From an uncultured Ignavibacteria bacterium (GTDB lineage: Bacteria; Bacteroidota; Ignavibacteria; UBA10030; SZUA-254), in contig CAVRTZ010000017.1 in the NCBI GenBank assembly GCA_963724215.1, positions 22,095 to 86,094 of the forward strand: a stretch of DNA of 64,000 nucleotides. Direction: 5' to 3'. Shown here one piece after another: positions 33,777-37,888 of the stretch. Position 1 is the stretch's first letter; each line of letters starts with the position of its first letter. The notes beneath the pieces were generated by a model that was not told the origin of the DNA, did no database searches, and saw only the letters and a program-made list of their open reading frames with translations. The translations under genes were made by a program, and so were the position numbers.

Positions 33777-34595
33777 TCACCGGCGTGAGCGCAGCACGAA
33801 CCTGATCAGGGCGAAGACGACGAACACGGCCCCGAGCATCGCCACGATCGAAGAGCCCGCCGGAAAATCGAACTGCAGCGCGAACAGGATGCCCAGGACC
33901 GAACCGAGGACGCTCGCGACGATCGCGAGGATCACCACGGTCGCCCGTGATCGCGCCACCATGATCGCCGACACGGGGGGAATGATGAGGTAGGAGAATA
34001 CCGGAATGACCCCGCCCGCCCGCACCGCGAAAACGATCGCGATCCCGATCGACAGGAAAAAAAGGAAATTCCAGATTTTAAAAATCCCGGGCTGTCTCGT
34101 GGAATCTTCCTCGACGCTCTCGGTCATCGCGAAAAACTTTTTCCTGAAAATGAAATGGACGACGCCCAGGAGGCCGAACAGGACGGCCATCGTGGTGAGG
34201 CTTTCCGCGCTCACCGTGAACAGGCTGCCGAAGAGCACCTCGCTGATGTCGGAATCACCGTGGGGTGATTTGGCGATGAGGAGGACCGTGACGGCCGAAG
34301 CGACCGCGTAGATGATTCCAATCACCGCCTCCTGCTTGAGTCTCTTGTCCCGGATGTTGATCAGGGAGAGGAAAAACGCCGCAACCATGGTGACCGCGAG
34401 CGAGAACAGCGTCGCATCATAGCCGAAGTAATTGGCGATGGCGATCCCGAGCATCGAAATCTGTCCCAGCGCAAGGTCCACGAACACGATCCCCCTTCCG
34501 ACGACGTGAACCCCGAGATAGGAAAGAAAGACCCCGACGATCAGGCTCACCTTGAGGGCGTTCAGGACAAACGATTCGGAAAAAAACTCGAGCAT
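33777..34595 (-). CDS. Metal ABC transporter permease (ZnuB/MntB family)
   Basis: YLGVHVVGRGIVFVDLAL, EAVIGIIYA, LFGSL, GVIPVFSYLIIP, DFPAGSSIV. Confidence 0.92.
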   Translation of the reverse strand: MLEFFSESFVLNALKVSLIVGVFLSYLGVHVVGRGIVFVDLALGQISMLGIAIANYFGYDATLFSLAVTMVAAFFLSLINIRDKRLKQEAVIGIIYAVASAVTVLLIAKSPHGDSDISEVLFGSLFTVSAESLTTMAVLFGLLGVVHFIFRKKFFAMTESVEEDSTRQPGIFKIWNFLFFLSIGIAIVFAVRAGGVIPVFSYLIIPPVSAIMVARSRATVVILAIVASVLGSVLGILFALQFDFPAGSSIVAMLGAVFVVFALIRFVLRSRR

Positions 34596-34608: not shown

Positions 34609-35538
34609 TCAGTGGACGGGCGGTTGCGATAAGACTTTCAGCAGGACGCCGACGTTGTAGTCGAAGAGATCGTAATAGGTGTTGACCCCGTCGAACGCCC
34701 CGACCGACGTCGCGAGGACGGCGATCCGCGCCCCGGTCTCCTTGGAGACCATTTCGGCTGCGTCCAGCATGAAATACGGGGAGGTGATGATGATGGGGAT
34801 TTTTTTGGATTTCACCGTCGAGATGACCTTGACGAGCTGGCTCGGGGTCGGGGGGATGCCGGGTTTCGGTTCCAGAAAATCCTCGATCGTGAAGCCGAAC
34901 CGCTCTTCCATGTACGGCCACTCGTTGTGATAGGCGATCACCGGAACACCGCGCAGCGGAGAGAGCTTTTTGACCCATTCGGCGGTCCGCCTGTCGATTT
35001 CCTCCTCGAAACGCTTCAGGTTCGCGCTGAAGTACGCCTGGTTTTCAGGCGACAGCTTCACCAGTTTTTCGCAGATGTTCTTTGCGATCTGTTTCCCCCG
35101 AAGCGGGTCCATCCAGTAGTGGGGGTTACCGTAAACGTGGATGTCGCCCTGCGCGCGGTCGCTGGAAGACGGCACCTGTAACAGCGCGATACCCGCGGAG
35201 GCGTCGACGTAACCGTCCCCGCCGGGTTGGATCTTCCCGTTTCTCGAGCTCTGAAGGAGGGAAGGCACCCACCCGGTCTCGAGGTCGAGCCCGGTGGTGA
35301 TGAAGATATCCGCCTTCGAGAGTTTCATGATGAAACTCGGTTTCGGGTCGACGAAATGGGGATTCTGGTATCCCGTGGCGATCGCGAACGCGTCGACCTT
35401 GTCGCCGCCGACCAGCTCCGCGATGCTCTTCAGGCTCTGGAGGGAGGCCACCACGGTGAGCTTGTCGCCGGCCTGCGCCGCCGCCGGTATCGCCAGGAAG
35501 GCGAGGTATATGAGTGCACGAATGAAATTTCTCATCAC
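34609..35538 (-). CDS. Metal ABC transporter substrate-binding protein (ZnuA/TroA family)
   Basis: Signal peptide; QNPHFVDPKPS, HVYGNPHYWMDP, YHNEWPY, EPKPGIPPTPS. Confidence 0.93.
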   Translation of the reverse strand: MMRNFIRALIYLAFLAIPAAAQAGDKLTVVASLQSLKSIAELVGGDKVDAFAIATGYQNPHFVDPKPSFIMKLSKADIFITTGLDLETGWVPSLLQSSRNGKIQPGGDGYVDASAGIALLQVPSSSDRAQGDIHVYGNPHYWMDPLRGKQIAKNICEKLVKLSPENQAYFSANLKRFEEEIDRRTAEWVKKLSPLRGVPVIAYHNEWPYMEERFGFTIEDFLEPKPGIPPTPSQLVKVISTVKSKKIPIIITSPYFMLDAAEMVSKETGARIAVLATSVGAFDGVNTYYDLFDYNVGVLLKVLSQPPVH

Positions 35539-35577: not shown

Positions 35578-36628
35578 TCAATACTGGTGCGCGCCATGAG
35601 CCCCGATGACGAAAATCCATCGCAACACGAAATCCGTTCGGTTCGTGGCGACGTTGGACGACGAGTGCCCCCCTCCGAGCTCGATCTTCTGAAATTCCGT
35701 CGCATACCACCCGAGGGTTGCGGAATATCCGCGTTCGAAGGCGTCGGAGGTCTGCGGGAGGTCTGTGTAGTCGTACCTGCCGGTGAGGAACCAGGTCTCG
35801 CCGAGCTGGTAGGTCAGGAATGAATACATCCCCCATGATCGGACACTGTTCCCGCCTTCCATGTCGTATTGGCTATGGTAGAATTCCGACTGCCAGGTCA
35901 GGGACTTATACCGGTTGAGTTGGAGCGGTTTCCACTTCAAGGTAAGATCGGCAGCACCGACCGTGGACGTCCGGAGATCCTGGTTTGGGCCGGTCATTCC
36001 CGTCAGTCCGAGCTCAAGCGTGGTATTCTCGTCCAGATCCCAAAAATTCTTCAGGTGGGCGAGATAGAGAAACCGGTCGGCGTCGGGGCGGGTGAAGAGG
36101 GGACTCTCCGTGGGAACGTTTGAAGCCTCGACTTCGATTTCCTGGTAAAAATCGAATGGATTCGGAATGAGCCAGCTCACTGAAACACCCTCATCGATCA
36201 TGCCGTCATCGCCGAAGAACGCCCGGTTTGCCGCAGGAATGTCGGAGAACGGGAGGGAGTGCGGGTGAACCGGGTTCACCCGTCCGATCGGCATGCGAAA
36301 CCTGCCCGCCCGGGCTTTAAGGTCGAGGGGAAGAGAGAGTGTCGTGACATAAGCCTCTTCGAGCCCGGCGACGTACTCTCCGTCAGGCGTCCTCGCGAAG
36401 GAGACGTAAACATCGGCTTTGGCATAGGGATCGATCGACGAAATCAGGGCGATTTCAGCTTCCTCGAACACGAAGTTGAATTTTCGGTTCGCGGTATCGG
36501 CATAAACGCCCCTCATATCCCCGATAACACTGATATTCGGGTTCATCAGGGAACCAGATACGGGCCCGCTCTGCGCTGAGAGCGCCAGTGGGACCATCGA
36601 ACAGACGAAAAGCAGTGAAACCTCTCAT
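35578..36628 (-). CDS. Outer-membrane beta-barrel associated with metal uptake (frameshift in signal peptide)
   Basis: NPNISVIGD, IDPY, LEEAY, AGRF, NPVHPH, alternating beta strands, C-terminal IGAHGAHQY; RBS GAGGTGA before ATG 36628, with one indel separating it from LLFVCSMVPLALSAQ. Confidence 0.82.
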
Positions 36629-36649
36629 TTGTCACCTCAAGAAATCCTG

Positions 36650-36679
36650 TAAAAAACAGGACCGGAGCTATCCGGTGCC
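36650..36679 (-). terminator. Intrinsic-terminator-like hairpin between the leader ORF and the metal-uptake genes
   Basis: Minus strand GG(C)ACCGGA-TAGC-TCCGGTCC followed by TGTTTTTT. Confidence 0.6.
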
Positions 36680-36684
36680 GTCCG

Positions 36685-37032
36685 TTAAACGAAAATCAAC
36701 GGTGACGGGGGAGGTGGAGAGCGGTCTTTTAAACGTGGAAGAAGATGAGATGAGGTGGGTATCTCGCGCTGAACAAAGGGGATATCCTGAAAATCAGGAA
36801 GTAAAGTCGAGGTCGACGTTGGCTCCCAGACAATGGTCAGGAGAAGCCGTGCACAGAGGTCGCAGCGGCTGTCCGATGTCCATCCGTCGGGATGCCCGGA
36901 CACGCTGACGCCATCGGGAGCGCGATTGGGGCCACTCCCCGGGTGATGATGGAACGAAGATGCCAGCGGAATGAAGACGGCCAACAGGCTGCCCAGCAGG
37001 AGGATTGTGGATATCTGTGTCAGCCGCGCCAT
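36685..37032 (-). CDS. DUF2946/CruR-like putative metal-responsive leader protein
   Basis: MARLTQISTILLLGSLLAVFIPLASSFHHH...CDLC...KDRSPPPP: hydrophobic signal, His cluster, CxxC, linker, RxPP motif; directly upstream of the metal-uptake operon. Confidence 0.72.
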   Translation of the reverse strand: MARLTQISTILLLGSLLAVFIPLASSFHHHPGSGPNRAPDGVSVSGHPDGWTSDSRCDLCARLLLTIVWEPTSTSTLLPDFQDIPFVQREIPTSSHLLPRLKDRSPPPPSPLIFV

Positions 37033-37132
37033 GGATGAAGGTAGTGAAATCCATGCAGTTGCGCAAGTTCCAGAATTCGCGGTCCACGGGTTCCCGTGAA
37101 CCGATCTGTCCGTCGCGGGATCACGGACCGAA

Positions 37133-37161
37133 TTGATTATCGCCCGGTAAAGTGATATATT
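37133..37161 (+). promoter_or_regulatory. Putative sigma70-type promoter for the SDR-yqeY-cvpA-mutS2 operon
   Basis: TTGATT-N17-TATATT about 20 nt before ATG 37184. Confidence 0.6.
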
Positions 37162-37183
37162 CATTCAATTTTTACAGGGTCTG

Positions 37184-37888
37184 ATGCCGCTCGATGGTAA
37201 AATCGTTCTCGTTACGGGTGGTACCGGCGATCTCGGGAGAGTCGTGGTTAGCAGATTTGAGCGGGAAGGGGCGAAAATATTTTTCACCATACGCGGGAAG
37301 GTCCCTGCCGGAACCTTTCCTCCCTCGCTTCTACGGAACCTGACCGCAGTCAGGGCGGACGTGACGAACGAGAAAAGCGTGGCGGGCTTGTTTGCCACGA
37401 TCGCACGGACATCAGGTAAAGCCGATATATTGGTCAATACGGTCGGGGCATTCAGTTCCGGACAGCCGGTCTCGCGGATGGACCTGGAAGAATGGGATTC
37501 CATGATGGACATTAACCTGAAATCTGTCTTCCTCTGTTCCCGGGAGTTTCTCCGGCAGAAGGGAATCGGCAAATTCGGCAGAATTTTCAATATTTCGGCG
37601 CAGACCGTCTTCCGGGCTTCCAGGGACCGTGCGGCCTACGCGGTCGCAAAAAGCGGGGTGGCCGCACTGACGGCCTGCCTCGGTGAAGAATTACGTGGAT
37701 CGGCGATCACGGTAAACGCCTTTGCTCCAAGCATTATCGACACCCCCGCGAACAGGAAGGCGATGCCGGGGGAGGATTTTTCGAGGTGGGTCGATCCCGG
37801 GGTGATCGCGGATGAAATGATTCACCTCTGCAGGCAAGAGGCCTCGGCGATCAACGGGGCTGTCATTCCCATATTTGGAGGCATATAG
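37184..37888 (+). CDS. Short-chain dehydrogenase/reductase
   Basis: VTGGTGDLG, ADVT, YAVAKS, VNAFAPSIIDTPANR. Confidence 0.92.
   Translation: MPLDGKIVLVTGGTGDLGRVVVSRFEREGAKIFFTIRGKVPAGTFPPSLLRNLTAVRADVTNEKSVAGLFATIARTSGKADILVNTVGAFSSGQPVSRMDLEEWDSMMDINLKSVFLCSREFLRQKGIGKFGRIFNISAQTVFRASRDRAAYAVAKSGVAALTACLGEELRGSAITVNAFAPSIIDTPANRKAMPGEDFSRWVDPGVIADEMIHLCRQEASAINGAVIPIFGGI

Follow-up and report, generated by a model that had tools for sequence, protein, structure and literature searches.

To our knowledge, work on leader peptides that couple ribosome arrest to a metal has covered only two cases, each from the Proteobacteria and each concerned with copper. CruR (Bp2923; DUF2946/PF11162) of Bordetella pertussis is encoded by the first small open reading frame (ORF) of a metal-uptake operon and combines an N-terminal export signal with an invariant CxxC and an R-x-P-P motif (RAPP) a few residues before the stop codon, the intervening spacer of 45 residues being conserved within one or two (PMC9426467); its arrest has been demonstrated by toeprint (PMC12992588). 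CutF of Rhodobacter capsulatus is an exported, DUF2946-like nascent peptide that arrests at a C-terminal proline motif (PMC9973294; bioRxiv 10.1101/2025.02.05.636593). Here we analyze a stretch of 64,000 nucleotides (nt) from an uncultured Ignavibacteria bacterium (contig CAVRTZ010000017.1), referred to in its entirety as the window, in which a small ORF, the leader, is followed by genes for a porin-like barrel, a ZnuA-like binding protein and a ZnuB-like permease. The layout, conservation and position of this ORF make it fairly probable, in our judgment, that it encodes a metal-responsive arrest peptide of the CruR/CutF kind that controls the operon in cis.

The comparison with CruR is the closest. 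Each is the first small ORF of a metal-uptake operon, with an export signal (putative in the window leader), an invariant CxxC and an R-x-P-P near the stop codon, and the spacer of 43 residues is close to the 45 of CruR; the expected logic is also the same, in that metal would release the arrest and uptake would be switched off. There are nonetheless clear differences. The motif is RSPP within an invariant RLxDRSPP (RAPP in CruR), it is followed by 8 residues rather than 3, and the leader has an invariant histidine after its hydrophobic segment, unlike CruR. The gap to the next gene is 56 nt (162 in CruR), the cargo is a 16-stranded porin with a ZnuA/ZnuB-type importer as opposed to a TonB-dependent transporter, the host belongs to the Bacteroidota (Ignavibacteria-like), and the Pfam score of the leader falls below the family cut-off.

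In CutF, which has CxxxC and PPP motifs, arrest is coupled to an mRNA structure that covers the next gene's ribosome-binding site, and copper induces stalling, which switches on a detoxifying oxidase (as described in the sources cited above). A Shine-Dalgarno-like (SD-like) hexamer is likewise paired in the free RNA at the window locus, although here, unlike CutF, a test of accessibility gave no unmasking; the opposite sign of control would be expected, because the cargo in the window is an importer. A C-terminal motif of the R-x-P-P type is also present in the small exported products of upstream ORFs (uORFs) of the ApdA, ApdP and SecM class (RAPP/RGPP), which are described as monitoring the Sec/YidC machinery and as being without metal motifs (PMC10987492, PMC12992588).

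Layout and conservation of the leader

The elements listed by the initial annotation (a 115-residue ORF, a hydrophobic segment, HHH, CDLC, a linker and RSPP) are all present, and the linker, put there at roughly 40 residues, has exactly 43 between C60 and R104. There are several further features of interest. First, the N-terminus has Arg3, some 20 hydrophobic residues (about 4-26) and A-S-S at the end of this segment, an arrangement kept in homologues. Second, R104-S-P-P107 is followed by only 8 residues before the stop codon, several of which are proline. Third, the longest open frame at this position starts at 37164 (159 codons), and the three close homologues found in a collection of 5.8 billion proteins are 114-115 residues long and start at the equivalent of Met 37032. 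Finally, strain-level contigs in public sequencing runs, which span only parts of the stretch, differ from the leader at 12 positions (5 synonymous and 7 non-synonymous), all in the linkers or the tail and none in the motifs.

Sequence searches recover few relatives. A profile of the four closest leaders, run against 401 genomes of the phylum, gave only four weak matches (17.8-19.4 bits) and no relative that convinced, a search of 1.84 billion representatives returned 10 matches at E <= 0.001, of which four long repetitive proteins were judged unrelated, and the leader alignment had no match among metagenome contigs. The leaders being too divergent for this approach, they were sought by position, using the porin as a guide, and an ORF was accepted as a leader if it was 90-150 codons long, lay on the strand of the porin gene and upstream of it, had a hydrophobic N-terminus and carried [R/H]-x-P-P within 20 residues of the stop. 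Porin homologues are present in 34 of the 401 sampled genomes, on 509 metagenome stretches and, in a collection of genomes at species level, at 418 places; the leader counts for the latter two sets refer to 80 loci each, and the 80 species-level loci kept are all labelled Bacteroidota (Ignavibacteria, Chitinophagales and others). An accepted leader is located upstream of the porin at 22 of 30 loci in the phylum genomes, the window locus included (HAPP forms occur at two further loci, and at one the upstream DNA extends for just 102 nt), at 55 of the 80 species-level loci, and at 54 of the 80 metagenome loci (16 of the other 26 have less than 600 nt of upstream DNA). With these sets pooled and four doubtful ORFs set aside, leaders are found at 127 of 190 porin loci and comprise 118 distinct sequences.

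The arrest-type motif in these 118 leaders is RGPP (55), RAPP (52), RSPP (7), HSPP (2), HGPP (1) or RPPP (1). The spacing from CxxC to RxPP is 42-45 residues in 81 of the 84 distinct leaders with a CxxC, and an alignment of 46 of this type (type I) has a mean identity of only 18% yet six invariant columns, corresponding to H28, C57, C60, R104, P106 and P107. The expectation of the initial annotation that the histidine, CxxC, RxPP and their spacing would recur in the small ORFs that precede homologous porin/ZnuA/ZnuB operons is thus borne out.

The RSPP clade to which the window leader belongs comprises four proteins from the large collection together with three genome loci whose porins are 63-67% identical. 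RLxDRSPP is invariant in all seven members, as are H28 and H30. The codons for R, S, P and P differ at their third positions among the four DNA copies available, which indicates that selection acts on the peptide. RSPP is also found at three metagenome loci with distantly related porins (32-34% identity) and is therefore recurrent. It belongs to the motifs grouped with RAPP uORFs in one survey (PMC10987492); in another it is reported to be capable of arrest, to have emerged from random arrest screens and to be depleted in the proteomes of bacteria (PMC12992588).

The pattern is rarely generated by chance. Scanning all stop-to-stop frames of at least 60 codons in the entire 3.06-Mb genome for C..C, 42-46 residues, R.PP, at most 12 residues and a stop identified 3 of 25,401 frames: the window leader, a second real leader, and one arginine-rich junk frame. 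The second leader (L141:1186-1533, + strand, on contig C1 of the same genome) has 115 residues with H-R-H, CALC, RGPP and a 3-residue tail, and is 99 nt upstream of a TonB-dependent receptor gene (L141:1633-3584) whose barrel continues in another frame; this is the classical CruR arrangement. The genome thus has two leaders with differing arrest motifs and cargos.

The leaders are not uniform across the loci. A CxxC is absent from 34 of the 118, in which different Cys/Asp/His motifs occupy a similar position, and a few leaders have H-A/G/S-P-P in place of R-x-P-P; leaders of these two sorts occur at Chitinophagales loci (L045-L112) and at L034, L035, L052, L053 and L060. In a large soil-metagenome group (L172-L220) the leaders have CxxC, 42 residues, RAPP and a 2-residue tail, and end about 400-460 nt before the aligned part of the porin; these porins may have a long N-terminal extension, or there may be another small gene in between.

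The downstream operon

The porin, ZnuA-like and ZnuB-like genes are on the same strand as the leader and downstream of it (Table 1), and the ZnuA-like gene follows the porin at 28 of 30 loci. The gap of 56 nt to the operon given by the initial annotation is correct if the porin starts at ATG 36628, a codon that is out of frame in the window (see below).

Table 1. Features of the leader and its operon (window coordinates)
Feature	Position	Strand	Remarks
Leader ORF (P0001)	36685..37032	-	115 residues plus stop; putative exported or membrane-anchored metal-motif peptide with an arrest-type motif at the C-terminus
N-terminal segment, residues 1-26	36955..37032	-	Signal peptide or signal anchor, as read from the translation
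H28-H29-H30	36943..36951	-	Follows the hydrophobic segment
C57-D-L-C60	36853..36864	-	CxxC metal motif; invariant
R100-L-K-D-R-S-P-P107	36712..36735	-	Contains the putative arrest site, RSPP (36712-36723)
C-rich, G-poor tract in the last third of the leader	36693..36812	-	Some 16 C and 3-5 G in each 40 nt; may resemble a Rho loading site
Leader-porin spacer, 56 nt	36629..36684	-	Hairpin 36661-36676; T6 36651-36656; SD-like GAGGUG 36633-36638
16-stranded porin-like barrel	35578..36628	-	No Pfam or NCBIfam family; main ORF 35578-36597, 339 residues
ZnuA-type substrate-binding protein	34609..35538	-	Pfam ZnuA, E 3.1e-53
ZnuB-type (ABC-3) permease	33777..34595	-	Pfam ABC-3, E 3.2e-37; last gene of the operon

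A structural model of the porin has 16 strands (predicted local distance difference test 73.5, predicted template-modelling score 0.71), and its top Foldseek matches are OmpT (6ehe; E 1.8e-11, template-modelling score 0.62), chitoporin, Omp32 and OprO/OprP, with template-modelling scores of about 0.62-0.65. The family has an invariant H-P-H (residues 111-113 of the 339-residue ORF, in a low-confidence loop of the model) and a C-terminal motif, G-x-H-x-A-H-x-Y/F, with invariant histidine. These motifs suggest a metal-selective pore.

The best NCBIfam match of the ZnuA-like protein is AztC (101.5 bits, below the cut-off of that model), and the closest solved structure is Synechocystis ZnuA (2ov1, E 8.5e-25). 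The protein has histidine at three positions aligned with Synechocystis ZnuA, which we take to be the zinc ligands of the latter, and lacks aspartate at the fourth, presumably the residue used by Mn/Fe binders. A ZnuA-family protein with a His/His/His site, together with an ABC-3 permease, is the combination expected of a ZnuA/TroA-type (cluster A-I) importer. These two components are shared with ZnuABC and AztABCD; unlike those systems, the window operon has no ATPase gene and begins with a dedicated porin, and whereas ZnuABC and AztABCD are under Zur, control here is apparently by the leader peptide, although no search for a Zur box was made. No ATP-binding cassette (ABC) ATPase gene is adjacent to the permease at any of the 15 longer loci checked, and the best match to a ZnuC model in the window's own genome, which contains a single ABC-3 permease, scores 82 bits against a cut-off of 306; since this genome is only 68% complete, the absence of a ZnuC-type ATPase is not established. 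With its three-histidine binding protein, the locus most likely has Zn(II) as its cognate metal; zinc is our best guess, and copper is the main alternative.

A proposed mechanism

We propose that the ribosome pauses or arrests with Pro106 and Pro107 of RLxDRSPP in the P and A sites, and that H28 and the CxxC, the latter at its fixed distance of 43 residues upstream, would then be outside the exit tunnel. When metal is scarce the arrest would persist and the porin, ZnuA-like and ZnuB-like genes would be expressed; binding of metal by the nascent chain would release the arrest by folding or pulling, and the operon would be turned off. This on/off logic is modelled on CruR, which is likewise ahead of an uptake system. 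The output would be an unmasking of the porin translation start, the arrested ribosome covering the CACCUC codons that pair with the SD-like GAGGUG, and the loss of porin translation upon release may add Rho-dependent polarity. Start-site unmasking, possibly followed by Rho polarity, is the output that we favor with moderate confidence.

A ribosome with Pro106 in its P site would have the CxxC 46-49 residues away from the peptidyl-transferase centre, just outside the exit tunnel, and H28 at a distance of about 78 residues, where it could have crossed the membrane already. The initial annotation had the peptide sensing periplasmic metal; this is doubtful on the same geometry, the CxxC being barely out of the ribosome, and the metal might be met on either side of the membrane. 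CruR is reported to function without its signal peptide (PMC9426467), and CutF to need its own (bioRxiv 10.1101/2025.02.05.636593).

RNA structure between the leader and the porin

Several results favor start-site unmasking. The 141 nt that begin at the arrest site and run into the start of the porin have an unusually stable predicted fold (-50.6 kcal/mol; z = -4.66; 0 of 200 shuffles). In the free RNA, GAGGUG is paired with the CACCUC of codons 106-108 (36711-36716), and the SD hexamer has an unpaired probability of 0.01; the SD-like signal of the genome as a whole peaks at -13 to -9. Across the family, freeing the footprint of the arrested ribosome opens the porin start above all six control positions at 32 of 69 loci, against an expectation of about 10, with a mean change in accessibility of +0.057 against +0.002 at controls (Wilcoxon p = 0.004, the loci being non-independent). 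No family was found in Rfam within E <= 1 for positions 36400-37300, and RNAalifold did not find a long-range stem in the SD-using group. A comparison of cognate with non-cognate duplexes (means of -7.2 and -6.0 kcal/mol) was dropped as a test because it is confounded by shared SD/anti-SD composition.

Further evidence for unmasking comes from a Chitinophagaceae group of eight loci (L049, L050, L059, L066, L071, L073, L090 and L095; alignment A5). These have a 7-bp long-range stem between the last codons and stop of the leader and a segment some 12-20 nt ahead of the porin start. Five of the seven pairs are compensatory, 90.9% of cells are paired (25-47% when the alignment is slid), and the covariation score is reached by 0 of 500 shuffles.

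Results that weigh against the proposal

Several results tell against the interpretation set out above. The first group concerns kinship. The initial annotation described the leader as CruR/DUF2946-like, and the layout agrees with this: there is a CxxC, the spacing of 43 residues compares with about 45 in DUF2946, the ORF is at the head of a metal homeostasis operon, and the Pfam DUF2946 model (PF11162) aligns from end to end (profile positions 4-117 of 117). The C-terminal motif is RSPP, 8 residues before the stop, where the family has RAPP, and the score falls short, the match being 17.5 bits (E 0.0071) against a Pfam gathering cut-off of 23.7 bits. Among the 46 type-I leaders, six match DUF2946 at E <= 0.01; one positional counterpart reaches the cut-off with 23.8 bits, one relative is named a DUF2946 family protein by NCBI, and DUF2946 clusters rank with the nearest neighbors (0.96) in a language-model search of Atlas features. 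Profile-profile comparison (hhalign) of the RSPP clade with an RGPP clade that has a threshold-passing member gave a probability of 1.07% (E 0.05), and the case for kinship is therefore one of design and synteny and not of sequence statistics. The leader is CruR/CutF-like in design and probably a very divergent branch of the family, as distinct from a demonstrated member.

The second group concerns the leader and the porin. About one third of the porin loci (59 of 190, not counting those with the four doubtful ORFs) are without an accepted leader, at least 17 of them having too little upstream DNA, and the leader is thus not obligatory. RSPP is described as only a 'partially permissive' substitution in ApdA/ApdP (PMC12992588). 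The porin gene is broken in the window assembly: the frame of ATG 36628 is shifted by one base from that of the porin ORF, with the break near 36615. A public contig that is otherwise identical over 219 nt is without one base at 36615, and loss of this base puts ATG 36628 in frame with a normal signal peptide, as in the three nearest relatives, whose porins start at the equivalent ATG. The break is probably either an error of assembly or a lesion of recent origin, and the contig has low depth (2.8).

The third group concerns the RNA. The duplex of the SD with the leader at the window locus has p = 0.08, and control segments inside the leader pair equally well or better. Freeing the ribosome footprint changes the accessibility of the porin start by -0.07 at this locus and by -0.08, -0.08 and +0.03 in the three nearest relatives. 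The SD re-pairs with a second CACCUC (36752-36757), 41 nt upstream; to cover this copy a second, queued ribosome would be needed, and RNAalifold did not find a conserved long-range stem in the four clade sequences. Start-site unmasking at the window locus is not supported by the tests run here. The two copies of CACCUC in the 3' part of the leader are separated by approximately the spacing of two queued ribosomes.

Alternative explanations

The simplest alternative is that the leader is an ORF without function, and the high G+C content of the genome (63.6%), on account of which long spurious frames are common, lends this some initial plausibility. It is already contradicted by the comparative data, since homologues share the start codon, synteny and motifs are kept over 127 loci, and only one chance frame in 25,401 fits the pattern; the leader is not a chance ORF, and we give this explanation practically no weight. 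That the product is instead a small and stable accessory protein, periplasmic or membrane-anchored, that binds metal for the uptake system, its proline-rich end having no regulatory role, would account for the putative export signal, the His/Cys ligands and the co-location with transport genes. It seems improbable in view of a sequence that is free to vary outside six columns, of 7 non-synonymous changes among 12 at strain level, all in linkers, and of the fixed distance between the CxxC and an arrest-type motif beside the stop, for which a folded chaperone would have no reason.

The remaining alternatives accept the arrest peptide and differ in its output or its metal. In one, control is transcriptional: the arrested ribosome, with any others queued behind, would cover a Rho tract, and upon release Rho, or the hairpin followed by T6, would stop transcription before the porin. 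CruR, the only characterized leader of an uptake system, works in this way (PMC9426467), the C-rich, G-poor tract in the window ends at the arrest site and may resemble a Rho loading site, a terminator-like hairpin is followed by the T run, and the tests for unmasking are negative in the window's clade. Against this, the spacer is 56 nt and not 162, terminator-like sites are no more frequent than in shuffled sequences (5 found, 4.3 expected), the hairpin and T run are by eye not common to the three closest relatives, the C/G ratio between the arrest site and the start reaches only the 87th percentile among stretches of the window, and a ribosome at RSPP leaves the hairpin uncovered. We regard transcriptional output as rather unlikely, and an intrinsic terminator as the main switch was rejected, its sites being neither enriched nor conserved in relatives. 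In another, the leader senses copper as CruR and CutF do, and the porin/ZnuA/ZnuB module either imports copper or is shut off by it. CxxC is a classical Cu(I) motif, the two characterized members of the family are copper-responsive (PMC9426467; bioRxiv 10.1101/2025.02.05.636593), and some Bacteroidota leaders of the same layout precede a copper-linked MbnP-family protein. The binding protein, however, retains the three-histidine site of Synechocystis ZnuA, many leaders of the same operon type are without CxxC and have Cys/Asp/His motifs, and another Bacteroidota leader of this layout is 272 nt upstream of a gene for a CobW/COG0523 GTPase, a family linked to zinc starvation. Copper seems to us a possible but distinctly less favored metal than zinc.

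The leaders of the same layout in other Bacteroidota (L119, L122, L124, L125 and L132) precede TonB-dependent receptors, in addition to the MbnP-family protein and the CobW/COG0523 GTPase just mentioned.

Novelty and implications

The principle of control is known already from CruR, CutF and the surveys of RAPP/RGPP uORFs. The suggestion in the initial annotation that this is an undescribed system holds only in part. CutF-like leaders have been catalogued (5,334 proteins, 19% of them from Bacteroidota), with OEP/RND, TonB-like, PCuAC and HupE/UreJ named among their neighbors and with the conclusion that not all are copper-specific (PMC9973294). The porin/ZnuA/ZnuB context, the RLxDRSPP module, the invariant histidine and the lineage-specific RNA pairings were not found in the published text available, although supplementary tables may list such loci, and none of the papers listed by a literature search combines ZnuA with arrest-peptide terms. 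In the available text of the uORF survey (PMC12992588) the downstream classes are TonB receptors, YcnI, PCuAC, PepSY and DsbA and not porin/ZnuA, and copper-related uORFs are stated not to be found in Bacteroidota; the available text of PMC9426467 has no mention of zinc, ZnuA, porin or Bacteroid.

Nascent-chain control by metals probably reaches beyond copper systems. As a more tentative extension, which we consider possible without thinking it likely, the leader would be a zinc-responsive nascent-peptide sensor, the first of its kind, in which zinc bound through His/CxxC releases the RLxDRSPP arrest and shuts a self-contained module for zinc uptake (a His-lined porin, ZnuA and ZnuB, with no operon-encoded ATPase). 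The module and its leaders are widespread in Bacteroidota, and present also on unclassified soil-metagenome contigs; the arrest motif (RGPP, RAPP, RSPP, HxPP), the set of ligands and the RNA output would each have been re-tuned by lineage.

The surprise is limited, as the principle of control was known already. If the proposal is correct, an uncharacterized porin family without a Pfam model would gain a function, and a single arrest module would be available in over 100 natural versions, fixed in spacing and varied in motif (RGPP, RAPP, RSPP, HxPP) and ligand set, which would form a comparative series for studying the way in which metal bound outside the tunnel affects the peptidyl-transferase centre. 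Metal sensing by nascent chains would also extend to a zinc-type importer, and to phyla in which Zur-type control is poorly known.

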